Below, one piece after another: positions 4,588 through 34,774 of a stretch of 37,164 bases of DNA. This DNA comes from a virus (taxonomy: Duplodnaviria; Heunggongvirae; Uroviricota; Caudoviricetes). The position numbers and the translations under genes were made by a program. Numbering within the stretch: the first letter of the stretch is position 1; the number at the start of each line of letters is the position of its first letter. The stretch lies in IMG/VR virus record IMGVR_UViG_2690315831_000002; one strand, written 5' to 3'. The notes beneath the pieces are model-generated. The model saw nothing but the letters and a program-made list of their open reading frames with translations, made no database searches and had not been told where the DNA came from.

Positions 4588-4998
4588 TTAGTGATTCAGG
4601 CCGTTACCGCGTCCGTCGAGAAAAACTTCCACGAGCAAATCACGGGTATAAGTGCGCTCGATGCCGCGATGCAGATATAGCCGTCCGCGTAAATTAGCTG
4701 ATGCAGTCCAGGTACCATCTTTGTGTTTGACCAGCATTCCTGGCATGACCGCACCTCGATTAACGGTCTGCGTTCCGTAATGTTGATGAACCATAAAAAC
4801 TCCTGCCCGTAAGCTGGGCTGCTGAACATATAGAGACTTCTGCGCGTATTCAGGCGGTGGATGGCCGCCGGTTGTCATAACTAAGTCGCCTCGTTGAAGC
4901 GACTGAGGTATGAAGTGTTGAGTTGATTTCAGCTGGTCACACCGACGTTCACGCGTCCGCTTCACCCCTCGCACTCCCCGGAGCCTGCTGAAATTCAA
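4588..4998 (-). CDS. Hypothetical protein at the first-gene-from-pL position (N-like slot); start uncertain
   Basis: 136-aa ORF immediately downstream (leftward) of the OL-like repeat region; arginine-rich N-terminus '[15 protein letters not shown]'; no confident homology. Confidence 0.3.
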
Positions 4999-5039
4999 GC
5001 TGCGGATCTAAGCGGTCATCGCAACGGTGAAGTTATAAA

Positions 5040-5140
5040 TTTTGTGATACCAACATCGATGCAATAGCATGACAATAGCAATAGCTATTGGTGTGGTCAA
5101 TAGCAATTAGTATTGATAATGTTTGATATACTTGTTCTGA
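5040..5140. promoter_or_regulatory. OL-like operator/promoter region
   Basis: Four 'CAATAGC' half-sites including the 12-bp perfect palindrome 'caatagctattg', plus 'ATTGATAATG'; the same half-site and 'ATTGATAATG' recur in the cI-cro intergenic region. Confidence 0.45.
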
Positions 5141-5381
5141 TTGATAATTAAATGAATTTTTATAAAAAAGAGTATGAAGACTTATTGGTGTGGCTGAAAT
5201 TTGTACAGCTTTAATGTGCCTCGTGACAGAGGGGCATCGGGTTGTGGTGAGCTCGGTAGGTTGGCAGCAAATTTAATCGAATATTGGTAGTCTGAGTTCT
5301 TATGTGTATTTTTTTAGTCAGTTGCTAAATGATACATAAATGACTTATTAGCCCCGCCATCGCTTTGTACGGGGCGTTTAT

Positions 5382-6989
5382 TTAATTTATCTTTTCAACA
5401 TTTCCATGAATCAACAAGTCGTAGGCAAGAAATAGTTTCCTATACTGGGTTTTTAAATTGTCAACGTCGCATGCCTTGAATTGAACAAACGCTTCTTTTT
5501 TAACATAATCTTCAATCTCCTCTTTGGGGATATTTTTTATGTTCTTAATGACTATAGACAATTCTTTGTACTTTTTGAACGTTGCATCCTTTATATCTTT
5601 GATGTTGGTGTAAATTTTATTTGCATTGATTTTATCTAAGGTGATTTTATTGAGCAAGTCGTCTAGTTTTCCGTGGCGTTCAATGCGTTGATTTAGTTTT
5701 AACACATATTTAGCTGGCAAACTTAACTCTTTCAAATTACATGAGGTTATAGTTTTTGAAAATGGAAGTTGTAATGAGTTTACTGAACCTAATATGAAAT
5801 CTATGGCTAATTTATTAGATATTTCATTTTTATTAAATAAGTAGTCTTCAAGATAATTTATTTCTTTAACTTGTGTGAATACATACTTTTTATCGCCTAG
5901 AGCAACAACTAAATTTTTTCCTTGTTTAACACTTTCTTCAAGTCTGTCTAAGTCAGAAGGTGAAACCAATAGAGTATCTAAGTGCCCTTTTTCACCCTCA
6001 TTAATGATAAGTGTTTTAATGGCTCTTTGATACCTTAAAACATCATAAGGTGAGAGCCCTTCATCAACAGCACTGATCTCATCATAGATCTGTTTATAGT
6101 TATCTGTTTTAACAGATGTATATGTAATTTGTAGCTGTTGATCGGTAATCTGTTTTGGTACTACTTCCTGTTCATTCTCTTTATATTCAATCAAAATTAT
6201 TCTTTCAGCTGATTTTCGACCATCTTCTCTAGGTAGTTGTGAGGAAAAATCAGAAAGAAGTTTCTTTACATTCCTGTCAGTTAAAGAATATCCAAGAAAA
6301 ACTATTGGATTTTTAATCATGTTAGATAGTATCTTGGCACTAATGAGTATAGATTTGTTGTCATATTTTTCGTAATCATCTTTATTTATGATTATTGAGT
6401 GTGGATCCTTTATATCACCATGTATTTTGTATAACTCACTCCAGCCAATAGTATCTTCGAAAAAACCATTATTTCCAATATAGAGTTTTGGAATTACATT
6501 TTGCTCTTGAAGTAAATTTTCTATGAAAGCATCATAATTTGTAGTGATGATTATCTTGGCCTTTTTTATTAATGTTTTAAATGATGCTAATTCATCAAGA
6601 TTTACATCCTTTCTGATTGTGTTATTAGAAAATCTTTGGCATATGGCGTATTTAAATGGTGAAATATCTTCACTAAAAACCCTCTTGGCATCTAGTCCAT
6701 TTAATTTTAATTTGCCAGTCCTAAACAATAGATTGTAATCATTTTCAATTTTACTTGCTGCCTCTGTATAAATCTTATGATCGATATCATTATCACTGTT
6801 ATTTTTATGTGATTCTTTTATTGTTAAAAGATAACTATAGAAATCATTTGTGGGATTTGTTATTTTCCAATACTCGTTTAATAGCTCTTCCCACGTTGGG
6901 TAGTTCTCTAAATATCTTTTTGAAATGCCTGAGCCAATAAAGACTATTGGGTAATTTTTGAATTCAAAATTTTTTTTTGACATATCCAT
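5382..6989 (-). CDS. SIR2-like (ThsA-type) putative NAD+ hydrolase with unassigned C-terminal domain; candidate anti-phage effector
   Basis: 535 aa; SIR2 hallmark motifs 'PIVFIGSGIS', 'IITTNYDAFIE', 'YKIHGDIKDP', 'KDDYEKY', 'PIVFLGYSLTDRNV' resemble the Thoeris ThsA SIR2 domain as recalled; very AT-rich versus flanks; sits between OL and cI (lambda rexAB position), co-oriented with cI; GGA 5 nt upstream of ATG. Confidence 0.8.
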   Translation of the reverse strand: MDMSKKNFEFKNYPIVFIGSGISKRYLENYPTWEELLNEYWKITNPTNDFYSYLLTIKESHKNNSDNDIDHKIYTEAASKIENDYNLLFRTGKLKLNGLDAKRVFSEDISPFKYAICQRFSNNTIRKDVNLDELASFKTLIKKAKIIITTNYDAFIENLLQEQNVIPKLYIGNNGFFEDTIGWSELYKIHGDIKDPHSIIINKDDYEKYDNKSILISAKILSNMIKNPIVFLGYSLTDRNVKKLLSDFSSQLPREDGRKSAERIILIEYKENEQEVVPKQITDQQLQITYTSVKTDNYKQIYDEISAVDEGLSPYDVLRYQRAIKTLIINEGEKGHLDTLLVSPSDLDRLEESVKQGKNLVVALGDKKYVFTQVKEINYLEDYLFNKNEISNKLAIDFILGSVNSLQLPFSKTITSCNLKELSLPAKYVLKLNQRIERHGKLDDLLNKITLDKINANKIYTNIKDIKDATFKKYKELSIVIKNIKNIPKEEIEDYVKKEAFVQFKACDVDNLKTQYRKLFLAYDLLIHGNVEKIN

Positions 6990-7095
6990 ATACCTTAAGC
7001 TCTGCTTGAAACATCCATTCTATAAATTATGAGGATGTCAGCATGTCTCACCAAAACATCATCTGGTTATCTTGATGAAATCTGTCATTAATAAT

Positions 7096-7788
7096 CTACC
7101 CATGTTTTCTATATGTCTGTGGCATGCTCCCAATAACTTTCCCAAATATAAATACCCGATTCATTTCGTCTTTTTCTATCGGGTCCCACGGTGAGTAGCT
7201 CTTGTTATCAGAGATAACCAGCAGCTTATCCTTCATCATTTGCAGGCGCTTTACATGGGCTGTGTCGTCGTACAGAAACGCATAGATACCATCACCGTCG
7301 AAAGATTTAACAGTGATATCAACGAACAGAAGATCACCTGGTTCGATCGTTCCTGACATGCTGTCACCGCGTACGTTAATGATGCGGATATTTTCTGCCT
7401 TCCTGCCATCGAACATGTGACGAGCATCGTCAAACGAGTACTCAACCGAGCGTAGGACTTCTACAAACTCACGGTTGATGACACCCGGCCCAGCACTGAC
7501 TTCTATATCAAGAACGTCAATTTTGAAGTATTTGGAATGGTTGACAGCAGGCTTCCCTGATTGTTGACCGTCATTTCTCATCGGGCCTATGCCTGATGAG
7601 AGCCACTCTGTTCGAACACCCAATGCATTAGCTATTTCAACAATTTTTGTTGAGCCGCGTGCGTTGCCGCTTGTCAGTCTCCAGATTGTGGGTTGAGCTA
7701 CGCCAGACGCCTTTGCAAGAGCGCCTTGAGACATTCCAGATTGTTCCATCGCTAGGTTTAAGCGATCAGCAAGAGTTTCTTTTTTCAT
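7096..7788 (-). CDS. cI: CI-type prophage repressor (HTH_XRE + S24 LexA-like autopeptidase)
   Basis: N-terminal HTH 'MSQGALAKASGVAQPTIWRL'; C-terminal S24 signature 'VRGDSMSGTIEPGDLLFVD' plus downstream Lys; divergent from cro; start set at internal ATG ('MKKETLADRL'), the longest ORF would start at TTG 7824. Confidence 0.85.
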   Translation of the reverse strand: MKKETLADRLNLAMEQSGMSQGALAKASGVAQPTIWRLTSGNARGSTKIVEIANALGVRTEWLSSGIGPMRNDGQQSGKPAVNHSKYFKIDVLDIEVSAGPGVINREFVEVLRSVEYSFDDARHMFDGRKAENIRIINVRGDSMSGTIEPGDLLFVDITVKSFDGDGIYAFLYDDTAHVKRLQMMKDKLLVISDNKSYSPWDPIEKDEMNRVFIFGKVIGSMPQTYRKHG

Positions 7789-7898
7789 AAGTTTTAATTT
7801 ATACGCTTGCGTATTGATGGTCAAAACACGTTTTGCTATTGATTGGATTAATACGCATTGCTATTATCCATTCATTGTAATACCAATAGGAATTGATA
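7789..7898. promoter_or_regulatory. OR-like operator region with divergent pRM/pR-type promoters
   Basis: Intergenic between divergent cI and cro; palindrome 'ATACGCttGCGTAT'; 'GCTATTG'/'CAATAG' half-sites and 'ATTGATAATG' shared with the OL-like region. Confidence 0.5.
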
Positions 7899-8782: not shown

Positions 8783-9712
8783 ATGGCAAACACTGCTGAG
8801 ATATTCAATTTTCCAGTGCCGGATGAGGCACAAAAGGAGCCGCGCGTGGCAGATCTCGATGATGGTTATACGCGCATTGCAAATGAGTTGCTGGAAGCTG
8901 TGATGCTGGCCGGATTAACACAGCACCAGCTTCTGGTCTTCCTGGCTGTCATGCGCAAAACATATGGCTTTAATAAAAAACTGGATTGGGTGAGCAACGA
9001 GCAACTGTCCGAATTGACCGGGATATTGCCGCACAAGTGTTCTGCTGCAAAAAGTGTTCTGGTAAAGCGTGGGATTTTGATTCAGAGCGGGCGGAATATC
9101 GGTATTAATAATGTGGTCAGTGAATGGGCAACATTACCCGAATCAGGTAAGAAAAATAAAGTTTACCTGAAAGAGGTAAATTTACCTGAATCAGGTAAGA
9201 AAAGTTTACCCAAATCAGGTAAAGGCGTTTACCCGAATCAGGTAAACACAAAAGACAAACTAACAAAAGACAATATAAAACCTTTTTCGTCCGAGAATTC
9301 TGGCGAATCCTCTGACCAACCAGAAAACGATCTTCCTGTGGTGAAACCAGATGCTGCAATTCAGAGCGGCAGCAAATGGGGGACAGCAGAAGACCTGACC
9401 GCCGCAGAGTGGATGTTTGACATGGTGAAGACCATCGCGCCCTCAGCCAGAAAACCGAATTTTGCAGGGTGGGCTAACGATATCCGCCTGATGCGTGAAC
9501 GTGATGGACGTAACCACCGCGACATGTGCGTGCTGTTCCGCTGGGCATGCCAGGACAACTTCTGGTCCGGTAACGTGCTGAGTCCGGCCAAACTCCGCGA
9601 CAAGTGGACCCAGCTCGAAATCAACCGAAACAAGCAACAGGCTGGCGTGACAGCCGGCAAACCAAAACTCGACCTGACGAACACTGACTGGATTTACGGG
9701 GTGGATTTATGA
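8783..9712 (+). CDS. O: Replication initiator O (divergent N-terminal iteron-binding domain, lambda-like C-terminal domain)
   Basis: Start at 'MANTAEIFNF' with GGAAGG RBS, paralleling lambda O 'MTNTAKILNF'; C-terminal half from 'SSENSGESSDQPENDL' to 'TDWIYGVDL' near-identical to lambda O as recalled; contains iterons; stop overlaps P start. Confidence 0.85.
   Translation: MANTAEIFNFPVPDEAQKEPRVADLDDGYTRIANELLEAVMLAGLTQHQLLVFLAVMRKTYGFNKKLDWVSNEQLSELTGILPHKCSAAKSVLVKRGILIQSGRNIGINNVVSEWATLPESGKKNKVYLKEVNLPESGKKSLPKSGKGVYPNQVNTKDKLTKDNIKPFSSENSGESSDQPENDLPVVKPDAAIQSGSKWGTAEDLTAAEWMFDMVKTIAPSARKPNFAGWANDIRLMRERDGRNHRDMCVLFRWACQDNFWSGNVLSPAKLRDKWTQLEINRNKQQAGVTAGKPKLDLTNTDWIYGVDL
9136..9245. repeat. 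Replication origin iterons inside O
   Basis: Five direct repeats of about 15 bp 'ACCYRAAWSAGGTAA' (starts about 9136, 9165, 9184, 9208, 9231), each with internal dyad 'TTACC..GGTAA', followed by an A-rich tract (9245-9290); same layout as lambda ori within O. Confidence 0.75.
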
Positions 9713-10410
9713 AAAACATCGCCGCACAGATGGTTAACTTTGACCGTGAGCAGATGCGCCGGATCGCCAACAATATGCCGGAACAGTACGACGAAAAGCC
9801 GCAGGTACAGCAGGTAGCGCAGATCATCAATGGTGTGTTCAGCCAGTTACTGGCAACTTTCCCTGCGAGCCTGGCTAACCGGGATCAGAACGAACTGAAC
9901 GAAATCCGCCGCCAGTGGGTTCTGGCTTTCCGGGAAAACGGGATCACCACAATGGAACAGGTTAACGCAGGAATGCGCGTAGCCCGTCGGCAGAATCGAC
10001 CATTCCTGCCATCACCCGGGCAGTTTGTTGCCTGGTGCCGGGAAGAAACATCCGTTACCGCTGGGCTGCCAAACGCCAGCGAGCTGGTTGATATGGTTTA
10101 CGAGTATTGCCGGAAGCGTGGCCTGTATCCGGACGCAGAGTCTTATCCATGGAAATCAAACGCGCACTACTGGTTGGTTACCAACCTGTACCAGAACATG
10201 CGGGCCAATGCGCTGACTGACGCGGAATTACGGCGTAAAGCTGCCGATGAGCTGACCTGTATGACCGCGCGAATTAACCGTGGTGAGGCGATACCTGAAC
10301 CAGTAAAACAACTTCCTGTCATGGGCGGTAGACCTCTAAATCGTGCACAGGCTCTGGCGAAGATCGCAGAAATCAAAGCTAAGTTCGGACTGAAAGGAGC
10401 AAGTGTATGA
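9709..10410 (+). CDS. P: Replication protein P (DnaB helicase loader)
   Basis: 233 aa 'MKNIAAQMVNFDREQMRRIANNMPEQYDEKPQV...' near-identical to lambda P as recalled. Confidence 0.95.
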   Translation: MKNIAAQMVNFDREQMRRIANNMPEQYDEKPQVQQVAQIINGVFSQLLATFPASLANRDQNELNEIRRQWVLAFRENGITTMEQVNAGMRVARRQNRPFLPSPGQFVAWCREETSVTAGLPNASELVDMVYEYCRKRGLYPDAESYPWKSNAHYWLVTNLYQNMRANALTDAELRRKAADELTCMTARINRGEAIPEPVKQLPVMGGRPLNRAQALAKIAEIKAKFGLKGASV

Positions 10411-10442
10411 CGGGCAAAGAGGCAATTATTCATTATGAGTAA
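10407..10442 (+). pseudogene. ren: ren remnant (11 codons then stop)
   Basis: ATG overlapping the P stop encodes 'MTGKEAIIHYE' then TAA; lambda Ren begins 'MTGKEAIIHY' as recalled; homology is replaced by low-GC foreign sequence. Confidence 0.6.
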
Positions 10443-10613
10443 CTTTCTAAATTTTTTGAGCCAGATTAGTGGTCTTGGATTCAGTTTACGTCTCAGATAC
10501 TGAGAAGAATCACAATTTGTGATACATGTTAACATTATGACTTTTAAGGCTTTAACTGAATTATTTTAAGAGTATTCTGACCCTTTCGTATCAATGCATG
10601 AACAGGAATCCAC

Positions 10614-11633
10614 ATGTGTTACAGTAATGTTACAGATCGTGATCTTATGGGGCAAATTGCTACTAAACTAAATGACTATCGAAACCCTCCTCAAGGTGGC
10701 ATGAGCATTGATCATGTTAATCGATGGATTAATCAATTTGAGTTAACTGATAGGCGATTTGTCTTAGAGGAAACGGACCGATTAATGGGGATTGGATACT
10801 TTTCTGAGAACGACTATCGCAGGGTTATTAGTAGTATCGCCACTGATGAGCAAAATGAAAGTTTCTTTCAAACTGCAGCGTTTCTCGATATTCAGAACCA
10901 AGGTACCAGTCAATCTGAGTTTTTGGATTTACTTCGAGATGATTGTGTAGAAGAATTCAACGTTGTGACCAGACTTTCACAACGTCAAAGAGTTAGTTCA
11001 TTCCGTGAATTTATTTACGTTGACGATGTTTTATTCTCCGGAGCTAAGGCAATCAATGATTTAATTTGGTTTATTGAGCACTTTAAACTCCAAAATATTA
11101 CAATATTGGTGTACTTTTTAGGTGGGCACACATATTCAACATGGAAGATAAAAGACCAACTTGAACGAAGATTTGCGGGCAGAAATATTTCAGTTGGCGT
11201 TGGTGGAGGTGAGTTTGTATTTGTTGAAAATAAACTCCGAAATAGTTCGAATTCGGAGGTTTTATGGCCAAAAGCGCAAAGTGTATCAATACCTGAATGG
11301 GCTGACGGTCAAATACATTATTTAGGAACATATCGAAACGGTTACGTCGCGAATAAAATTTTTCCTGATGAGCAGAGACGTGATCGTTTTGAAACTATTC
11401 TGACAAAAGTTGGGTTTGATATCCTTGGTCATAGTCAAAATCCCTCTGCTGTCATAAAGCCCTTAGGCTTTTCAACTTTCAATGGTGTTGGGTTTGGCGG
11501 AACTATCTTTACTTTCAGAAACTGCCCAAATAATACCCCTCTCGCGTACTGGTGGGGAACTTATCTTCGAACAGGAAATAGAGCTCTGGATTGCTGGTAT
11601 CCACTTATGAAGCGTAATGTGTATAATCGGTGA
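10614..11633 (+). CDS. Hypothetical 339-aa protein, upstream partner of a NADAR protein (candidate toxin/effector)
   Basis: ORF with AGGA 7 nt upstream; stop overlaps the start of the next gene (GTGA); lower GC than lambda-like flanks; only a weak PRTase-like loop 'FIYVDDVLFSGAKAI'; no confident fold assignment. Confidence 0.7.
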   Translation: MCYSNVTDRDLMGQIATKLNDYRNPPQGGMSIDHVNRWINQFELTDRRFVLEETDRLMGIGYFSENDYRRVISSIATDEQNESFFQTAAFLDIQNQGTSQSEFLDLLRDDCVEEFNVVTRLSQRQRVSSFREFIYVDDVLFSGAKAINDLIWFIEHFKLQNITILVYFLGGHTYSTWKIKDQLERRFAGRNISVGVGGGEFVFVENKLRNSSNSEVLWPKAQSVSIPEWADGQIHYLGTYRNGYVANKIFPDEQRRDRFETILTKVGFDILGHSQNPSAVIKPLGFSTFNGVGFGGTIFTFRNCPNNTPLAYWWGTYLRTGNRALDCWYPLMKRNVYNR

Positions 11634-12247
11634 TCATGAGCTATAGACTATACCTGTTTCACAACACAGTTTCTTTCAGGAAAACCACCGAGAAATGGGG
11701 TGGTCTTTCCAACATGGCCAAAGGATATCCGCTCTTCGTTAATGGTATACCCATTCAATCGAGTGAAATTCTTTACCAAGCATGCCGATATCCAGACTAT
11801 CCAGATATCCAAAGGGTTATTATTACCCAAGCCAACCCTTACGAAGCTAAACAAACCGCCAGAACCTTCGAGGCCAAAACCCGTACTGGTTGGGAAAAAA
11901 ATCGAGTTTCGGTAATGAAATGGTGTGTCTGCGTTAAGCTTTGCCAGAACTGGGAATCGTTCTTCGCGCTATTGGATAGCACAGGAGATCATGACATTGT
12001 TGAGCACTCAGAGAAGGACCAATTTTGGGGGGCTAGTAAGGACTCCGAAGGTAACTTTTATGGCATGAACGTGTTAGGTCGTATCCTTATGGATGCGAGA
12101 GATATTGCAAGAAAGAAGGGGCCTGCAGGGTTTGCTACGATACCGCCGCTACCCTTGGATAGGTTTCTTCTGCTCGGGGAGCAAATACGTGATGTCACTT
12201 TCTCTCCACCACCGATGGATTCAGGGCAAAGCTTATCGCTTTTTTAA
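11630..12247 (+). CDS. NADAR (YbiA/DUF1768-like) domain protein
   Basis: 'GWEKNRVSVMKWCVCVKLCQNWESFFALLDSTGDHDIVEHSEKDQFWGASKDSEGNFYGMNVLGRILMDARD' parallels E. coli YbiA as recalled; translationally coupled to upstream gene (GTG 11630 or ATG 11636). Confidence 0.8.
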   Translation: MIMSYRLYLFHNTVSFRKTTEKWGGLSNMAKGYPLFVNGIPIQSSEILYQACRYPDYPDIQRVIITQANPYEAKQTARTFEAKTRTGWEKNRVSVMKWCVCVKLCQNWESFFALLDSTGDHDIVEHSEKDQFWGASKDSEGNFYGMNVLGRILMDARDIARKKGPAGFATIPPLPLDRFLLLGEQIRDVTFSPPPMDSGQSLSLF

Positions 12248-12531
12248 TGTGGCTGTTGTTCCTCTCTCGGTCGTGACAGTTCTGCAACCCCGCTTTGGCG
12301 GATTTTTTATAAATTATGCAACTTATTGACTTGATACCGATATTTCAGACTTTAACATAGCAGCCAAAATCTAGGACGAAGGCGACAAAGTAAACGTTGA
12401 ATTGGCTGCCATCGGCGTAGCGTTCAAAGAGTGGATGAATATGTCGGTTATAGCGGAAGCGGTGATGCGTGAGCAGACATCGCTCTGCCCAAGGCATCCG
12501 CCCCTCGACATCTTAAGCAGGAAGGTGAAAA

Positions 12532-13014
12532 ATGATAAGTGCAGAAGGACTGCAGCGGTTACTTAATTTATCGGAGCCTCCATCTGATGAACTGATTGAT
12601 GTTTATCTTCAATTCAGCATGATTTTTCCTAGGGTCGAACAAAGTTTTTTTGGTGGCTTTGCTAAGGGGGAAGACAGTTTAAATTATGCTCGAACGTTAC
12701 TTGACGCCGGGATAAAGGTGCCCAACGAACTTTTTCACGATTTTAAGCAGAGATACATTTTGAACGGGGATGCGCAGGAAAGACTTGACGCCCTCTGTTT
12801 CGGTCGAGAGAGAGATAAGCGGGGAATAGTTAATGGGCTTCAAAATGACGCAGCAACAGATCTAAACACCATGTCTACAGTATTAAAGATAGTTATAAGG
12901 ATAAGAAATAACCTTTTCCACGGAAATAAAGACGCTTATCTTTTTGTTGATTCTCAAGAGCAAGCGCAACTATTGAGATGGTGCGTGAGATTTCTCCAAG
13001 GATTATTAAATTAA
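12532..13014 (+). CDS. Hypothetical 160-aa protein with possible HEPN-like Rx4HG motif
   Basis: ORF with AGGAAGG RBS; 'RNNLFHG' near the C-terminus fits the Rx4-6H HEPN pattern; lies between the NADAR operon and the nin genes. Confidence 0.55.
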
Positions 13015-13203
13015 TCTGCCTTTGATTTTCACTAATCAACTCGCCATAATCATGTCATCGGAGCCTGAACAACTCCGGTGACTTCTGCGCTAAACGGGGA
13101 CGTTTATGCGCACATACAATCCAAACTCTCTTCTCCCTTCACAGATGCAGAAATGCACCTGCGATTTTTTGCATCCAGCGCCTGACCTCTGCGGAGGTGA
13201 AGC

Positions 13204-13659
13204 GTGAACCTACCACAAGATGGCATCAAACTGCATCGTGGTAACTTCACCGCTATCGGTCAGCAGATCCAGCCTTATCTGGAGGACGGCAAATGCTTTC
13301 GCATGGTGCTTAAACCGTGGCGCGAGAGACGCAGTCTTTCCCAGAATGCACTTAGCCACATGTGGTACAGCGAAATCAGTGAATACCTCATAAGCAGGGG
13401 GAAATCGTTCGCTACTGCAGCATGGGTAAAAGATGCTCTCAAACACACATACCTCGGTTATGAAACCAAAGACCTGGTTGATGTCGTAACCGGTGAAATC
13501 ACCACTATTCAGTCGTTACGCCATACCTCCGATCTTGATACCGGAGAGATGTATGTCTTCCTGTGTAAGGTTGAAGCCTGGGCGATGAATATTGGCTGCC
13601 ACCTGACTATTCCGCCGAGCTGCGAGTTCGAGCTGCTGCGCGACAAGCAGGAGGCGTAA
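13204..13659 (+). CDS. NinB/YbcN-like recombination protein
   Basis: 151 aa, same length as DLP12 YbcN; '[12 protein letters not shown]' resembles the NinB 'RSLDQNRKLW' motif; followed by ninE-ybcO-rusA as in DLP12; GTG start. Confidence 0.65.
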
Positions 13660-14471: not shown

Positions 14472-14608
14472 TGTTTGAGTCTTATATGGCAGAACGTATT
14501 CGCCACCGCTGGATACGCCTGCGCTTATATCGTTTCCCCGGTTCTGTTTTGACCGATTACCGGATACTGAAGAATTACGCCAAAACACTGAAAGGAGCTG
14601 CCGCATGA
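14468..14608 (+). CDS. ylcG: YlcG-like small protein
   Basis: 46-aa ORF '[26 protein letters not shown]...' overlapping rusA stop and Q start; matches the DLP12 rusA-ylcG-Q arrangement. Confidence 0.5.
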
Positions 14609-15294
14609 ATACCCAATATTTACAGTATGTCCGCGAGCAACTCATTGTGGCTACTGCTGATTTGAGCGGAGCAACGAAAGGCCAGCTTGAAGCCTGGCTG
14701 GAGCATGCACAATTTGATACTGGTACATATAAACGAAAGAAGCTGCGCATTCTGGATGAGGTAACGGGCAAGATGATTACGCTGGATAATCCGCCGATTT
14801 CCGGTAAGCAGTCGTACGCAAAAGGTTCATCCATTGCACTGGTCAGCCAGGTTGAGTTCTCAACATCTTCATGGCGCCGCGCGGTTCTGTCTCTCGAAGA
14901 ACATCAGAAAGCGTGGTTGCTGTGGAGTTACAGTGAAAACATCAGCTTTGAATACCAGGTGGCGATCACCCAGTGGGCGTGGTCTGAATTCAGGGGGTAT
15001 CTCGGCGCGAAGAGGGTGGCAGGCAAGACCATGGAGCGCCTGAAGAAGCTGATATGGTTGGCAGCGCAGGATGTGAAGAGCGAGCTGGCTGGGCGTGAGA
15101 CTTATGAATACCGGGAACTGGCATCACTGGTGGGAGTGACATCAAAAAACTGGTCTGAGACATTCACTGAACGCTGGGTTGCAATGAAGCACATTTTTCT
15201 ACAGCTTGATAGCGAAGCTTTATTGCTTGTAACGAGAACACGTTCAAAACAAAAGACCACATTTTCACAGCAAAGTATTGCAAAACTGGATTAA
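14605..15294 (+). CDS. Q: Putative late antiterminator Q (non-lambda type)
   Basis: 229-aa ORF between rusA/ylcG and a pR'-like promoter upstream of the lysis cassette; assignment is positional, sequence does not match lambda Q. Confidence 0.55.
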   Translation: MNTQYLQYVREQLIVATADLSGATKGQLEAWLEHAQFDTGTYKRKKLRILDEVTGKMITLDNPPISGKQSYAKGSSIALVSQVEFSTSSWRRAVLSLEEHQKAWLLWSYSENISFEYQVAITQWAWSEFRGYLGAKRVAGKTMERLKKLIWLAAQDVKSELAGRETYEYRELASLVGVTSKNWSETFTERWVAMKHIFLQLDSEALLLVTRTRSKQKTTFSQQSIAKLD

Positions 15295-15515: not shown

Positions 15516-16319
15516 CTATTTCTTTTTGGGAAGTGGATACTTTAAGCTAACATTTTGAGTTTCTATATCTCGTGGCCCTCGAGTTTTATCATAAAAATAC
15601 CAGATATTAAATTTTCTCTCAGTGTGCCATGTATCATATTGCAAGTGATCCCAGCCTAAATATGAAGCAACATAGTTTGATACTCTTATTTTGGCTTCAG
15701 ATGAAGCTTTTCCTTGATATGCGCACATAACCGCACCTAAGAAAAAATCGGCTAGCTGAATGTTTTCAGATGCTTTAGAGTCTTTTGTCACTACACTGCT
15801 GATTATCCCTTTACGACCAAATTTTCTATTCAATATGTTATTGGCAATAACATTTAGTTCTTCATCAGCCTTTTTATAACGAGATGCGATAGGATCAACT
15901 TCAATCCTGAAGTAACTGTCTCTTTCAGGGTGTGCAGAAATTACAGAGCTAATTTTTGTGGTAATGAGATTTGTGAAGTGCTTTCTCCTTGCCAGGTCAT
16001 AATCTCCATTATGAAATGCCTTATTTACTATTGATTTTTCAACCACGATACAATGAAAAGCTAGCCAAGGAACTCTAAAGAATAAGTCGATCAGCTCAAG
16101 ATAAAATTCAGAGTATCTTTTTGAATGGGCTTTTTGCCATTTTATTTCTTCAAAAAAAACATGTTTTCTGCGTAGTTCTCTGATTAGTTGACAGAAATCC
16201 CCACGGCGTTGGTACTTCATCCACAGACTGCCAAAGCCGTAGAAACGTTGTCCATCAATGCCAGATTCATCGCAAGCAATATGCCAAATTAACTTACCAA
16301 TGTTATCTTTTTCTGTCAT
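15516..16319 (-). CDS. DUF3800-like protein (uncharacterised; candidate defence/moron gene)
   Basis: 267 aa with N-terminal 'IACDESG' and C-terminal 'QLAD', fitting the DES / QxxD description of DUF3800 as recalled; AT-rich; antisense between Q and the holin. Confidence 0.7.
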   Translation of the reverse strand: MTEKDNIGKLIWHIACDESGIDGQRFYGFGSLWMKYQRRGDFCQLIRELRRKHVFFEEIKWQKAHSKRYSEFYLELIDLFFRVPWLAFHCIVVEKSIVNKAFHNGDYDLARRKHFTNLITTKISSVISAHPERDSYFRIEVDPIASRYKKADEELNVIANNILNRKFGRKGIISSVVTKDSKASENIQLADFFLGAVMCAYQGKASSEAKIRVSNYVASYLGWDHLQYDTWHTERKFNIWYFYDKTRGPRDIETQNVSLKYPLPKKK

Positions 16320-31673: not shown

Positions 31674-33656
31674 TTGCTCAACAAGTATAATGGAGTTCCC
31701 GTGGATACAGCAGAACATGATGGCAAATTTGCTTGGGCTAGTTTTTATGAGGCTTTTGCCAACGCGTTACTGACTTGGCGAAATCGTAGAGATGAATTAG
31801 TCAAAGGTATTCATCTAATTGCCTCAGGTGTGGAAGGAATGTCCCATCTGCAGGACAAATCTATTATGGGAGAGATCTTTCCCTTAAAAGACATTTGTCC
31901 GTTTACTACTATGGGCTTGTTCAATCGTAACTTGACCGACAGCAATCGCAAAATTATTGCTGCCAAGCTAGCGAATTTGTTGGGCGTGAACGAACCGATT
32001 CCTGACTCCTTTGCCGGAATCCCGCTGTTGAATAACCAAAAATCTTGGTTCTTTGGTTATGAAAAGTCACGCGACCCTAATGACATTGAATGCTTGTGGG
32101 AAATGTTCTCGCAGGCAATGACCTTTGCGGATAACCAGAATACTAACTCTGCAGACTTCACTGCCGCATATGACATCGCTTCTACAGTAATGAATGTCGG
32201 TTGGAATCTCACCATGGGGTTGTACTGGACCCGTCCTTGGTTCTACCCTACTTTAGATAGCCAGTCGCAGTATTACATTCAGACAGTGTTAAACATTAAG
32301 ATCATTAAAAACGGGGCAAAAGGTCGCTGTAGTGGACAAAGTTACCTGAGTCTTATGCGGGCGCTGAACGAGGTCTTTACCCAACCAAACTATCCGGTTC
32401 ATTCTTTCCCAGAACTTTCTTTATCAGCGTGGAATACAGATCTTAGCCAGTCTAAAGATGAGGTGGCAAATAGAACGTGGAAAGCCTCTTTACTGAATAA
32501 AATTAAGGCGTTATGCCTGAAAAAAAATGGCCCTTATTTCACTGCTTCGGAGTTGGAAGAAAACTACTTGGACGTATTCAAGGTAGAGCATCCTGAGAGC
32601 AAAACAGTTACAAGCTCAATCTACTTTTATCTACAGAAACTATGCAATGATGATGAGTTAAAGTCCCTTGAGTCCGGAAATTATGAATACCTGAATTTTG
32701 AGAAAAACGAATCCCAGACGATAACTGAGGAAACTGTCGAAGAGAGTGCGCCGTTGCCAAAACTCACTCACGTTCCTTATGACATCAGTCATCTGGTGCA
32801 GGATGGCTGTTTCTTGGAAGAGGCTAAGATCCAACTCACACTTCAGCGCCTGATCGACAAGAAAAACCTGATATTACAAGGACCACCCGGAACTGGAAAA
32901 ACCTGGTTAGCGCGACGTTTGGCGTACTGCTTGATGGGAGAAAAAGCACCTGAGCGTATTAGCGCGGTGCAATTTCACCCGAACCTCTCTTACGAAGACT
33001 TTATTCGCGGCTGGCGTCCAGGTAAAGAAGGGCAATTGACGCTAATTGATGGACCTTTTGTAAATGCAATCAAAACTGCAGTCAATAATCCTACCTCGAA
33101 ATATGTGGTGATAATTGAAGAGATTAATCGTGGCAATCCGGCGCAAATCTTCGGTGAAACACTCACGTTGATGGAAGCAGATAAACGCACGCCGACTGAG
33201 GCATTATCTCTTTCCTATCCTAAAAATGATGATGAAAAAATATACATTCCTGAGAATCTATATATCATCGGTACGATGAATATTGCAGACCGCTCACTCG
33301 CACTACTTGACCTAGCGCTGCGCCGTCGTTTCGCGTTTATCGATCTAAAGCCAGCTTTTAATGACGCGTGGAGAAACTGGGTAAATTATAATTACGCAAT
33401 TGATTTTGACATGTTAGCATTCATCAAATCTCGACTGACGGTACTTAACGATATGCTGGCAAAAGATGTTACCTTAGGACCACAGTTTTGTATCGGTCAC
33501 AGCTATGTCACCCCAGCTATCGGCCAAAAAATCAACGATGCCCAGGCTTGGTATGAACAAGTCGTTGATACAGAGATCTGCCCTTTGCTCGCCGAATATT
33601 GGTTCGATGCTCCAAATAAAGTCGATGAAGCCAGAAAAGTGTTATTAGCAAAATGA
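31674..33656 (+). CDS. mcrB: McrB-like AAA+ GTPase subunit of a type IV restriction system, with long unassigned N-terminal domain; start uncertain (TTG)
   Basis: C-terminal 300 aa closely resemble E. coli McrB (e.g. 'NLILQGPPGTGKTWLARRLAYCLMGEKAPERISAVQFHPNLSYEDFIRGWRP', 'YIIGTMNIADRSLALLDLALRRRFAFIDL') as recalled; N-terminal about 370 aa unlike the K-12 McrB N-terminal domain. Confidence 0.85.
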   Translation: MLNKYNGVPVDTAEHDGKFAWASFYEAFANALLTWRNRRDELVKGIHLIASGVEGMSHLQDKSIMGEIFPLKDICPFTTMGLFNRNLTDSNRKIIAAKLANLLGVNEPIPDSFAGIPLLNNQKSWFFGYEKSRDPNDIECLWEMFSQAMTFADNQNTNSADFTAAYDIASTVMNVGWNLTMGLYWTRPWFYPTLDSQSQYYIQTVLNIKIIKNGAKGRCSGQSYLSLMRALNEVFTQPNYPVHSFPELSLSAWNTDLSQSKDEVANRTWKASLLNKIKALCLKKNGPYFTASELEENYLDVFKVEHPESKTVTSSIYFYLQKLCNDDELKSLESGNYEYLNFEKNESQTITEETVEESAPLPKLTHVPYDISHLVQDGCFLEEAKIQLTLQRLIDKKNLILQGPPGTGKTWLARRLAYCLMGEKAPERISAVQFHPNLSYEDFIRGWRPGKEGQLTLIDGPFVNAIKTAVNNPTSKYVVIIEEINRGNPAQIFGETLTLMEADKRTPTEALSLSYPKNDDEKIYIPENLYIIGTMNIADRSLALLDLALRRRFAFIDLKPAFNDAWRNWVNYNYAIDFDMLAFIKSRLTVLNDMLAKDVTLGPQFCIGHSYVTPAIGQKINDAQAWYEQVVDTEICPLLAEYWFDAPNKVDEARKVLLAK

Positions 33657-34774
33657 CGACAATAACCGGGAGTGAGCAACATACAGCATCACGTATTCCC
33701 ATGCGAAATATCTGGATGCTGATGCTGTACGCTTCAGATCTGTTTCGTCAGTTAGGGCGCAATCAGATCGCAGTAGAAGATAACCCAGCAGAAATCCCCG
33801 ACCTGGTGGCGACAATCCTCCTTCATGAGATTACGCTGCGCCGACGTCGCAATTTAAATATGGGATACCAAACTTGTCATGCGGCCCTGAACCGGGTGAG
33901 AGGGCGCATTGACATACTGTATACTGCCAGTCATCAACTACTGGAACGGGGACAGGTTGCCTGCCATTTTCAAGACATAACCCTCAACACCCCCCGAAAT
34001 CGCTATGTTCGCTGTGCGTTAGAACGTCTGGCCTCAATCATAGTGAAACCGTCTTTGGCGGCAGATTGCCATTTTATGGCAATATCACTTCGCCGTGAGG
34101 GGATAAATGGAGGATATCCTGCCCCCCACGAATTACCCTCAGTGTGGCGTTTTGGACGCCATGATGCCGCAGATAAACCGATGGTCGATGCCGCACGATT
34201 AGCTTTTGAACTGCTGATGCCGACCGAAGATCAAGGCCAATATCTTTTACCTGCGCCCTCAAATAACCTTTACTGGATGAGAAGACTATTTGAAAAAGGT
34301 ATCGCTGGCTTATATCGTGTACACCTTGCCAAAACAACTTGGCAGGTCTCTGCAGGGAAAGAGCTGAAATGGGCGTTGAGCGATCAAAGTGCAGGTAGTG
34401 CAGAGATTTTCCCGACAATGAAGTCAGACATTATTCTGGAACACAAGACTGCCCAGCGGCGTATTATTATCGATACCAAATTTAATTCGATTCTGACAAA
34501 GGGTTGGCATCGGGAGCAATCACTACGTAATGGCTATATTTATCAGCTATATACCTACCTTAGAACACAGGAGAACAAGACGGATCCGCTTTCGCTCAAT
34601 GCCGCTGGTCTTCTACTTCATCCAGCTGTTGGCTATATGCTTAATGAGTATGTTGTCACTCAGGGACATAAGATCCATTTTGCTACAGTAGATATGACGG
34701 TAGATGCTAAAGCAATTAAAAAACAATTGCTGGCAATAGCCCATGATTGTGCAGGAGTCGCGGTTGATGACTAA
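33653..34774 (+). CDS. mcrC: McrC-like nuclease subunit
   Basis: 373 aa, start overlaps mcrB stop (ATGA); N-terminus 'IPMRNIWMLMLYA' parallels McrC 'IPVRNIYYMLTYA' as recalled; 'IIIDTKF' matches the PD-(D/E)xK-type core position. Confidence 0.85.
   Translation: MTTITGSEQHTASRIPMRNIWMLMLYASDLFRQLGRNQIAVEDNPAEIPDLVATILLHEITLRRRRNLNMGYQTCHAALNRVRGRIDILYTASHQLLERGQVACHFQDITLNTPRNRYVRCALERLASIIVKPSLAADCHFMAISLRREGINGGYPAPHELPSVWRFGRHDAADKPMVDAARLAFELLMPTEDQGQYLLPAPSNNLYWMRRLFEKGIAGLYRVHLAKTTWQVSAGKELKWALSDQSAGSAEIFPTMKSDIILEHKTAQRRIIIDTKFNSILTKGWHREQSLRNGYIYQLYTYLRTQENKTDPLSLNAAGLLLHPAVGYMLNEYVVTQGHKIHFATVDMTVDAKAIKKQLLAIAHDCAGVAVDD

Follow-up and report, generated by a model that had tools for sequence, protein, structure and literature searches.

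A ren remnant in a lambdoid phage genome as the scar of an old replacement by the anti-phage cassette DS-32

The DNA analysed here, called the window below, is a stretch of 37,164 nucleotides from a virus of the class Caudoviricetes (IMG/VR record IMGVR_UViG_2690315831_000002). Between the replication gene P and the ybcN gene of its lambdoid backbone, the window contains a remnant of ren, a two-gene cassette assigned to the anti-phage system DS-32, a pseudogene, and an open reading frame of 160 codons (ORF160). The features of the locus are as follows.

9709..10410, plus strand: replication gene P, left backbone flank (Pfam Phage_lambda_P, 8e-62; DNA 100% identical to lambda up to 10435)
10407..10442, plus strand: ren', a remnant of ten lambda ren codons followed by Glu and TAA, with the junction at 10435/10436
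10436 to ~12439: module 1, the DS-32 cassette (PRTase-CE and NADAR proteins; NCBIfam DS32 equivalogs)
10436..10482, plus strand: 47-bp spacer separating the cassette core from the junction, found in the ren'/DS-32 carriers of E. coli examined
10483..12322, plus strand: mobile DS-32 core of leader, two genes and terminator, delimited by blastn to Morganella and Proteus
10491..10523, no strand assigned: two small perfect palindromes in the DS-32 leader (TCTCAG-ATA-CTGAGA and ATCACAA-T-TTGTGAT)
10614..11633, plus strand: DS-32A, phosphoribosyltransferase-like protein of the PRTase-CE family, 339 aa (NCBIfam, Pfam)
11636..12247, plus strand: DS-32B, NADAR-domain protein, 203 aa, starting 2 nt past the DS-32A stop
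12290..12308, plus strand: weakened intrinsic terminator (4-bp stem CCGC/GCGG, then A and U6)
12342..12566, plus strand: DNA polymerase III theta (holE/hot-like) pseudogene, as annotated by RefSeq in the identical A35 sequence
~12440-13020: module 2, theta (holE-like) pseudogene and 160-aa ORF, NC101/IAI1 type
12532..13014, plus strand: ORF160, uncharacterised all-helical protein of 160 aa with an invariant RxRNNLFHGxK (Rx4H) motif
13021..13105, plus strand: start of the conserved right backbone, with a promoter-like site and an inverted repeat
13106-13207, plus strand: orf33/ylcH, right backbone flank
13204-13659, plus strand: orf151/ybcN, NinB-like, right backbone flank

The ATG at 10407-10409 overlaps the stop codon of P (ATGA) and opens the frame atg acg ggc aaa gag gca att att cat tat gag taa, which encodes MTGKEAIIHYE* (10407-10442). 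Over P-ren, positions 10300-10435 match lambda, phage 21, HK140 and DE3 with 100% identity, which, judged from the alignments, is true homology and not chance. Divergence from lambda ren sets in after ...ATTCATTA, and lambda Ren goes on as MTGKEAIIHYLGTH... (the full Ren sequence matches NC_001416 at 100%). A reading of the locus made from the sequence alone had proposed that ren is truncated at a precise junction and that lambda Ren extends past the shared start, and both proposals hold: among ~2,500 E. coli genomes with P-ren, the match to the window always stops at query base 40-41, i.e. at 10435/6, and the DS-32 prophages of strains SCU-485 and MEI1O2-23 share the junction 10435/10436. These two, the relatives of the 94% identity class that were examined, have GAGAAAC where the window has GAGTAAC. 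The TAA at codon 12 is thus due to an A-to-T change at 10440 relative to them, and their remnant consequently comprises 20 codons. The length of 11 codons given in the sequence-only reading is correct for the window but does not extend to these relatives; measured against them, the stop at codon 12 is lineage-specific. Instead of a full-length Ren of ~96 aa encoded directly after P from an ATG overlapping the P stop, the window has 11 codons, and ren' is a recombination scar, not a gene. A 122-aa ORF on the minus strand that spans the junction (10167-10535) was set aside, being antisense to P and unannotated by RefSeq in the identical region.

Downstream of the junction, the DNA is AT-rich and compositionally foreign, as had been proposed, with a GC content of 0.33 in 10436-10613 and 0.39 in the DS-32A gene versus 0.54 in P. 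The 47-bp spacer that follows the junction is present in SCU-485, MEI1O2-23 and A35, the E. coli ren'/DS-32 carriers examined, and absent from the Morganella and Proteus copies of the cassette and from lambda; it falls within the 90-bp query with which junction carriers were identified (match over at least 80% of the query). By this measure, 44 of the 5,426 complete E. coli genomes carry the ren'/DS-32 junction, and these carriers vary in repressor/immunity, integrase, Q and lysis modules.

Alignment with lambda and lambdoid prophages placed the right junction at 13021, about 183 bp upstream of ybcN, where all variants of the slot converge. The variable segment thus measures 2,585 bp, and the backbone does not resume only at 13204, as had been thought, since homology restarts upstream of orf33/ylcH; this gene, its putative promoter and the inverted repeat are backbone. 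The promoter-like site (TTGATT, 13022-13027; CATAAT, 13045-13050) was also recovered by a promoter scan, the inverted repeat (13054-13082) has a 10-bp stem and a hairpin z-score of -2.46, and the phage 82 record X92588 annotates a putative -35, a -10 and a regulator-binding site in the region corresponding to 13021-13105. The ybcN product scores 22.1 bits with Pfam NinB, under the cut-off of 23.8, and shares 94-99% amino-acid identity with YbcN of phage 82, DLP12 and NC101. The ren slot of prophages has long been known for variable cargo, and the view of the locus as a cargo slot of lambdoid phages with conserved flanks and variable content is borne out. The morons between ren and ninB/ybcN, such as emrE-ybcK-ybcL-ybcM of DLP12 in E. 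coli K-12, have the same P-ren and orf33/ylcH-ybcN flanks around variable content, and the window cassette likewise has its own terminator and a lower GC content; however, its genes are for defence, not for a transporter or a regulator, and its ren is cut by the junction, whereas ren is intact or hit by an IS element in those phages. All three cargo ORFs counted originally are present, but the segment also includes the theta pseudogene. Three complete genomes and IMG/VR contigs contain the entire segment with 100% identity; some near-identical copies (A35, L026) have frameshifts in ORF160, DS-32B, ybcN or Q.

The first two ORFs had been described as an operon ending in a NADAR gene, which agrees with their assignment to DS-32: the DS-32A stop codon (11631-11633) and the DS-32B ATG (11636) are separated by 2 nt. 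DS-32A scores 304.4 bits with the NCBIfam model DS32_1_antiphage (cut-off 250; model positions 2-322 of 322) and matches Pfam PRTase-CE at 2.2e-39. It shows the hallmarks of the type I phosphoribosyltransferase fold, a Rossmann-like core and an acidic PRPP-binding loop, the latter defined as hydrophobic residues followed by D-D and x-x-x-S/T-G. A literature search retrieved no paper on PRTase-CE. DS-32B scores 260.1 bits with NF053876 (DS32_2_antiphage; cut-off 240; model positions 1-181 of 181) and 83.9 bits with Pfam NADAR (1.9e-23; gathering threshold 35.1; model positions 2-160 of 163). It aligns with YbiA (2b3w) at 4e-12, S43-E44-ILYQA matching SEHYFQA, that is, the SE..(F/Y)QA motif, and reaches 69.7 bits with the riboflavin-intermediate N-glycosidase model TIGR02464, just under the threshold of 73.7. 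The catalytic motifs are invariant across genera.

DS-32 has been described as a two-gene anti-phage system (DeWeirdt et al., DefensePredictor; bioRxiv 10.1101/2025.01.08.631726; Science 2026, PMC13092281), and a clone of WP_000097610.1 and WP_032260665.1 is listed as validated in MG1655 in the supplement of PMC13092281. The tested system has the same gene order, PRTase-like then NADAR, the window proteins pass both DS32_1 and DS32_2 cut-offs, and the tested allele, as found in strain TW11681, likewise occupies the P-to-ybcN slot of a lambdoid prophage. The alleles nevertheless differ considerably, with 51% identity for DS-32A (43% over residues 1-256, 75% over 257-339) and 82% for DS-32B, so that the validation belongs to the tested allele and not to that of the window; moreover, the upstream neighbour is the ren stub in the window and an MT-A70 pseudogene at the tested allele.

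Outside the lambdoid context, blastn recovered positions 10483-12322 in Morganella loci (92.3% identity) and 10500-12324 in Proteus loci (91.6%). In Morganella, one copy of the core lies at the end of a prophage, adjoining KwaAB (Kiwa); in Proteus, it resides in an integrative island. Where the cassette sits in non-phage integrative islands, it lies beside AbiGi. Of the island proposed in the sequence-only reading, the DS-32 core thus recurs in other contexts; the whole three-ORF content is rare. The order PRTase to NADAR, adjacent and on the same strand, was conserved in all ~30 loci examined; the gap of 2 nt in the window compares with 2-7 nt in most other copies, and the two genes of TW11681, as annotated, overlap slightly. 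IS insertions either disrupt DS-32A or remove part of it together with DS-32B, and no carrier was seen that had lost DS-32B while retaining an intact DS-32A. A tblastn search with DS-32A found no match in 50,697 deposited phage genomes; all evidence is therefore prophage-derived.

Of the features typical of morons, foreign composition, a terminator, conserved flanks and occurrence in unrelated contexts were observed, while the promoter scan of the leader gave none. The terminator of the SCU-485 copy folds as AAACCCGC-UUUG-GCGGGUUUUUU, and the window copy carries two substitutions. The two leader palindromes, which lie within the stretch shared with Morganella and Proteus or border on it, are possible regulatory sites. 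A sigma-70 scan found no consensus promoter in the leader, and promoter-like sites in 10300-13300 were not in excess (3, versus 5.4 expected from shuffled sequences). The leaders of the window and of the tested allele share only short islands (TTGTGAT, AAGTATTCT and the RBS), too few for this comparison to define a promoter. Since none was found in the leader, expression of the cassette in the lysogen is an assumption.

Module 2 begins within the theta pseudogene, which has lost its start codon (ATT), contains an in-frame TAG (12372-12374) and lacks 55 bp relative to IAI1. In place of an intact ORF of ~76 aa above the family cut-off, the match to NCBIfam PRK10969 is confined to model positions 20-45 (3e-07, 30.2 bits; cut-off 97). 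Within the pseudogene, the closest blastn relative switches from the SCU-485 type (94%), which extends to 12439, to the NC101 type (99.0%) from 12468 onwards, a pattern that marks a recombination joint between the modules at ~12440-12467. The two modules also have separate distributions: 41 of the 44 junction carriers possess DS-32 without ORF160 and have a 67-aa ORF instead, about 55 genomes contain module 2 without DS-32 in the arrangement P-ren-DUF4145-theta-ORF160, and only three genomes have both. The alternative considered in the sequence-only reading, a normal variant ren/nin allele shared by many lambdoid phages with the same gene content, therefore applies in part, in that ren'/DS-32 is a recurrent minor allele, but its combination with ORF160 is rare.

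ORF160 is a predicted defence gene, a published predictor also ranking it as defensive, and is possibly HEPN-like. In common with HEPN RNase defence proteins (RiboL-PSP-HEPN, PD-T4-2B), it is all-helical and about 160 aa long, and a long helix in it ends in an invariant Rx4H motif. It differs from them in that the window protein passes no family model, with nothing found in PADLOC or NCBIfam, and in that no partner gene other than the dead theta accompanies it; Foldseek against the PDB returned no hit better than E 0.85, and the family profile gave chance-level hits only against PDB sequences.

The stub is a real scar of an old replacement of ren by the known anti-phage cassette DS-32; it exemplifies the mosaicism usual in phages and does not represent a novel type of element. 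It does not reflect an insertion, as had been supposed, but the replacement of the 3' part of ren in an old, shared event that did not take place in this genome. In the scenario that we consider probable as a whole, comprising the replacement scar, a diverged DS-32 allele, a second crossover, a defence function and the mechanism set out below, the replacement would have hit the ren gene of a lambdoid phage at codon 10/11, where a self-contained mobile cassette of leader, DS-32A, DS-32B and intrinsic terminator displaced the 3' part of the gene. The ren'/DS-32 arrangement would then have passed between lambdoid prophages of E. coli as the conserved sequences on either side, P to the left and the orf33/ybcN promoter region to the right, underwent homologous recombination. 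In the lineage of the window, a second crossover within the theta pseudogene would have linked DS-32 to the right-hand portion of a different cargo, theta-ORF160 of the NC101/IAI1 type, and a later point mutation would have cut the ren remnant down from 20 codons to 11. We infer the direction and order of these events from a handful of representatives rather than from a phylogeny.

The cassette is a diverged DS-32 allele and most likely protects the lysogen against other phages. DS-32A, with its intact PRPP-binding site, may transfer a (phospho)ribosyl group onto a nucleobase-containing target through an N-glycosidic bond, a modification that would block phage replication, and DS-32B, as an N-glycosidase of the NADAR family, may take off or limit the modification in uninfected cells; ORF160 would be an independent cargo gene, possibly an HEPN RNase. 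DS-32A and DS-32B would thereby form a toxin/antitoxin-like pair of writer and eraser, comparable to those versions of DarT-DarG in which NADAR replaces Macro: in both, an enzyme forming an N-glycosidic ribosyl adduct would be encoded first and the reversing hydrolase second, with NADAR as the common element. The preprint bioRxiv 10.1101/2025.01.08.631726 notes that the NADAR protein of DS-32 resembles DarG, suggests toxin-antitoxin partner swapping, and describes DS-32A as lacking similarity to DarT. Consistent with the latter, no ART domain was detected, so that the locus is not a DarTG system of ART toxin and hydrolase antitoxin; the fold of the NADAR partner is not that of an ADP-ribosyltransferase but that of a type I PRTase, including the PRPP loop, and the donor used by this partner would be PRPP, not NAD+. 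DS-32A is also weakly related to the PRTase effector of type III-A retrons (PADLOC PRTase_III-A, 2.2e-08, residues 34-334), a relation likewise given in the DefensePredictor supplement (PMC13092281), but it adjoins a NADAR gene and neither a reverse transcriptase nor msr/msd.

Other explanations fit the locus less well. The sequence-only reading took the segment as one island of ~2.7 kb (10443 to ~13200), inserted as a unit with three ORFs forming one functional cargo. The ORFs are indeed contiguous, on the same strand and all below the backbone in GC content, and the segment is identical in three complete genomes and IMG/VR contigs; yet the distributions of DS-32 and ORF160, which rule out the three ORFs as one system, the change of closest relative within theta, the end at 12322 of the part common to Morganella and Proteus, the terminator between the modules and the restart of the backbone at 13021 all speak for two modules joined inside theta and make a single island highly improbable. 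We regard it as very unlikely that the pair serves the phage, expressed from pR in lytic growth, by counter-defence or metabolic aid, for example by removing ADP-ribose-type modifications or signals of host immunity or by nucleotide salvage. Its position in the delayed-early rightward operon, on the strand of O, P and Q, the proposal that phage NADAR domains counter ADPr-based host immunity (PMC9503650), the lack of a promoter of its own in the leader scan and the score of DS-32B just below the TIGR02464 threshold would suit such a role, but a homologous pair is listed as a validated defence system after being cloned on its own in MG1655, and the cassette has a conserved leader and a terminator of its own, occurs beside AbiGi in non-phage islands and next to Kiwa, and is absent from the deposited phage genomes.

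Decay of the cargo to non-functional DNA, with the stub marking a degraded prophage region, appears the least probable explanation. The theta pseudogene, the weakened terminator, the destroyed ren, the frameshifts in A35 and L026 and the IS hits in other carriers point that way; against it, the window has DS-32A, DS-32B and ORF160 at full length, the first two exceed their equivalog cut-offs, and catalytic motifs are conserved. In addition, DS-32B remains 81-94% identical across alleles in which the N-terminal part of DS-32A is down to ~43%, indicating selective constraint rather than decay.

A wider reading, in which the P-to-orf33/ybcN interval is a true defence hotspot, ORF160 a new HEPN-type gene and DS-32 a system of undescribed chemistry, is on the whole unlikely to hold in all its parts. 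If it did, enterobacterial lambdoid prophages would have an interval comparable to the P2 and P4 hotspots, where homologous recombination could shuffle defence cassettes by way of the conserved flanks and of linker genes inside the interval, the theta pseudogene being one; ORF160 would be a new stand-alone defence gene of the HEPN type; and DS-32 would act by PRPP-dependent phosphoribosylation of a nucleobase target, with NADAR erasing the mark and the hypervariable block of DS-32A (aa 181-256) setting target or trigger specificity. It is well established that prophage cargo slots carry defence systems and that lambdoid phages exchange DNA in mosaic fashion, and current understanding is unchanged by the present finding. 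Its value is one of annotation: it shows where a prophage cargo segment truly begins and ends and that this segment is composite, and it flags ORF160 as a conserved gene with an Rx4H motif. The ren stub, as a shared scar, is a usable marker for one lineage of DS-32 carriers, and the strongly diverged natural DS-32 allele could help to map the specificity-setting parts of the PRTase.

The short reading frame behind replication gene P is a remnant of lambda ren (ren'), as the sequence-only reading had proposed; it opens with ATG at 10407–10409, encodes MTGKEAIIHYE and ends at TAA 10440–10442. A chance match is ruled out by the region 10300–10435, which is 100% identical across the P-ren boundary in lambda, phage 21, HK140 and DE3. 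In a multiple alignment of the window, lambda and the IAI1 prophage, identity runs to ...ATTCATTA, and the sequences are unrelated from 10436. When a 90-bp query spanning the ren'/cargo junction was searched against 5,426 complete E. coli genomes, its left 40–41 bases were present in 2,525 of them, and the match always stopped at window position 10435/6, except in 44 genomes which read through the junction. The DNA that follows is AT-rich, as had been noticed (GC 0.33 in 10436–10613 and 0.39 for gene 1 of the cargo, versus 0.54 in P). The length of 11 codons holds for the window itself and goes back to a later A-to-T change: two aligned copies of the 94% identity class read GAGAAAC instead of the GAGTAAC of the window, and their ren remnant therefore comprises 20 codons.

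Features of the region from P to ybcN (window coordinates)
9709–10410, replication gene P; its stop overlaps the ren' start (ATGA)
10491–10505, leader palindrome TCTCAG-ATA-CTGAGA, small and perfect, read from the sequence
10509–10523, leader palindrome ATCACAA-T-TTGTGAT, small and perfect, read from the sequence
10614–11633, gene 1, DS-32A, 339 aa (Pfam PRTase-CE, 2.2e-39)
11636–12247, gene 2, DS-32B, 203 aa (NADAR, 1.9e-23)
12342–12566, DNA polymerase III theta (holE/hot-like) pseudogene; start codon lost, in-frame TAG at 12372–12374, 55 bp missing relative to IAI1
12532–13014, ORF160
13022–13050, promoter-like site TTGATT-17-CATAAT (promoter scan), in the conserved right backbone
13054–13082, inverted repeat with a 10-bp stem, strongly folding (z-score -2.46), kept in all slot variants
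13106–13207, orf33/ylcH, 33 codons
13204–13659, orf151/ybcN

An inserted island of about 2.7 kb, with the backbone resuming near 13200, had been envisaged. However, all slot variants examined (phage 82, PhiR30_1, SCU-485, MEI1O2-23, IAI1, NC101, and TW11681) converge at window position 13021 (TTTGATTTT...). Given backbone identity up to 10435, the variable segment therefore spans 10436–13020 (2,585 bp), and it stands in place of the 3' end of ren; it is no addition to an intact backbone. In the phage 82 record X92588, the promoter hexamers and the inverted repeat just inside the right backbone are annotated as putative -35, -10 and regulator-binding site; the repeat is possibly an operator or a terminator-like signal.

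Among lambdoid phages, the P-to-ybcN slot is a well-known site of variation. It holds ren alone in lambda, ren with an acyltransferase and a lipoprotein gene in PhiR30_1, and an IS3-interrupted ren followed by emrE-ylcJ-ybcK-ybcL-ybcM in DLP12 of K-12. Prophage hotspots with defence systems are already well described (PMC9122126, PMC9519451).

The two genes next to ren' belong to DS-32, a two-gene anti-phage system. DS-32A scored 304 bits against the NCBIfam equivalog DS32_1_antiphage (cut-off 250) and DS-32B 260 bits against DS32_2_antiphage (cut-off 240), both passing; the identical proteins of strain A35 are named "phosphoribosyltransferase-like anti-phage protein" and "NADAR family anti-phage protein" in RefSeq. 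The PRTase-NADAR gene order is constant, with a gap of 2 nt in the window. DS-32 stems from the DefensePredictor study, whose supplements record the clone "NADR" (WP_000097610.1 and WP_032260665.1) as validated in MG1655 (PMC13092281). TW11681 encodes WP_000097610.1, and there, too, the pair lies between P and ybcN, preceded by an MT-A70 methyltransferase pseudogene in place of the ren stub. DS-32A of the window shares 51% identity with the tested allele overall, 43% over residues 1–256 and 75% over residues 257–339; DS-32B shares 82%. Residues 257–339 and the NADAR partner remain conserved among DS-32 alleles, while residues 181–256 are the most variable block of DS-32A, or tied for it, in every allele comparison (38% identity to the tested allele; 80% to SCU-485, with flanks of 92–100%) and may represent a specificity region. 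By every available sequence criterion, the locus is a DS-32 member, in the form of a diverged allele.

Morganella, Proteus and Kluyvera have close relatives of DS-32A (87–89% amino-acid identity). In Morganella, the pair sits at the end of a prophage, flanked by integrase-KwaA-KwaB on one side and tail-fibre genes on the other; in Proteus, it is part of an integrative island that also carries an IS element and AbiGi. DNA similarity to these two copies covers window positions 10483–12322 (92.3%) and 10500–12324 (91.6%), i.e., a leader of ~115–130 bp, both genes, and a trailer of ~75 bp, suggesting a self-contained, mobile cassette. The trailer has an intrinsic terminator, clean in the SCU-485 copy (AAACCCGC-UUUG-GCGGGUUUUUU), whereas the window has kept a stem of 4 bp (12290–12308). 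The promoter scan found no consensus promoter in the leader; both leader palindromes fall within, or just at the border of, the stretch that the window shares with the Morganella and Proteus copies. None of the deposited phage genomes searched encodes DS-32A. IMG/VR contains 19 DS-32 loci, one of which is evidently this window, and wherever flanks are available, O-P-like replication genes precede the locus, ybcN follows it, or both. In one of them (IMGVR_UViG_650716035_000001, 4639–7624), from a more distant lambdoid phage, a DS-32 allele follows ~1.1 kb downstream of a full-length ren (56% identical to that of lambda); loss of ren is therefore not required for carriage of DS-32.

Nor does the segment represent a single island. 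DS-32 was found in 63 of the 5,426 genomes, in 44 at ≥94% identity and in 19 as the tested allele (~76%). The junction-spanning query is matched over ≥80% of its length in all 44; in 41 of them, homology to the window stops at ~12413–12439, and a 67-aa ORF follows before orf33. Conversely, about 55 other genomes contain window region 12380–13020 without DS-32; in such carriers (IAI1, NC101), P is followed by an intact ren, DUF4145, the theta pseudogene, the 160-aa ORF, orf33 and ybcN. The window is 94% identical to SCU-485 up to 12439 and 99.0% identical to NC101 from 12468 on, so that the switch of relative falls inside the theta pseudogene, the recombination joint between two separately distributed cargo modules, DS-32 and theta/ORF160. 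Both modules occur together in only three complete genomes (A3024, OkiPb01694, and A35). Theta adjoins ORF160, and all copies seen are pseudogenes, with an internal stop in IAI1 (5961–6209 of that locus), a frameshift in NC101 (5961–6208), and 5' degradation plus the 55-bp deletion in the window. A 250-aa DUF4145 protein (Pfam 7.9e-12) precedes theta-ORF160 in both the IAI1 (5197–5949) and the NC101 locus; it had no PADLOC match, and the three genes possibly form a cargo unit.

ORF160 matched no family in Pfam, NCBIfam or PADLOC. An exhaustive search yielded 78 representative clusters of relatives, mostly stand-alone proteins of 160–175 aa; E36, R74, R123, R125, N127, H130 and K133 are invariant in 53 of them. 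The resulting motif, RxRNNLFHGxK, contains an Rx4H pattern, as is typical for HEPN RNases. The predicted structure is all-helical (pLDDT 86), and two of the 53 relatives matched Pfam RiboL-PSP-HEPN (best E 1e-4). A Foldseek search of PDB returned no match, nor did a profile of the family when run on PDB sequences. The DefensePredictor supplement lists the cluster (WP_000622059.1/WP_000622057.1) as "predicted novel defense gene" (log-odds 12.9) and notes a weak resemblance to PD-T4-2_B RiboL-PSP-HEPN; on its contig, the listed gene is 284 bp away from the NADAR protein that the window also encodes (PMC13092281). Membership of ORF160 in the HEPN group is plausible.

The prophage carries further defence-type cargo. 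A 535-aa SIR2_2-domain protein (5382–6989, minus strand), beside the cI-like repressor gene (7096–7824, minus strand) and where lambda has rexAB, matches PADLOC candidate PDC-S25 (8.8e-235) and, more weakly, ThsA. Between Q (14605–15294) and the lysis genes, on the opposite strand, a 267-aa DUF3800 protein (15516–16319, minus strand) matches PADLOC candidate PDC-M04A (3.4e-34); A35 and SCU-485 have the same gene. Near the right end, a McrBC-like restriction pair (31674–34774, plus strand) consists of an AAA_5 ATPase (660 aa) and a Pfam McrBC-family protein (373 aa) overlapping by 4 nt, with an Acyl_transf_3 acyltransferase gene just upstream on the other strand (29545–30633, minus strand).

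DS-32-carrying prophages differ in repressors, integrases and Q modules. Most likely, the cassette took the place of ren a single time, in an ancestral lambdoid phage, and then passed between prophages by recombination in the conserved flanks; the pair probably protects the lysogen. Junction and sharing, cassette bounds, family memberships, folds, motifs and gene order are shown by the data, and the paper reports defence activity for a homologous allele. In the preprint, DS-32 pairs a PRTase with a NADAR protein that resembles DarG in structure; the PRTase is described as unrelated to DarT, and toxin-antitoxin partner swapping is suggested (10.1101/2025.01.08.631726). The closest solved relative of DS-32B is the YbiA N-glycosidase (2b3w, 4e-12), whose SEHYFQA aligns with S43-E44-ILYQA. 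Tentatively, a PRPP-dependent transferase could modify a nucleobase-containing target with an N-glycosidically linked (phospho)ribosyl group, a change which the NADAR N-glycosidase would reverse; we regard this mechanism, likened to DarTG although DS-32 is not a DarTG member, as possible but less likely than not. Among ETEC1732/1734 and isolate 58, IS elements have hit DS-32: ISKpn26 (IS5-family) lies inside DS-32A, and, separately, an IS1 has removed the 3' half of DS-32A, all of DS-32B and what remained of the prophage as far as cusS. DS-32A was affected each time, and no copy examined had an intact DS-32A with DS-32B lost, which is consistent with, but no proof of, a toxic DS-32A.

The earlier observation thus stands and its interpretation in part: ren' is an ordinary mosaic boundary adjoining an already named defence system, and the remaining novelty lies in the diverged DS-32 allele, in ORF160 and in the chemistry of DS-32.
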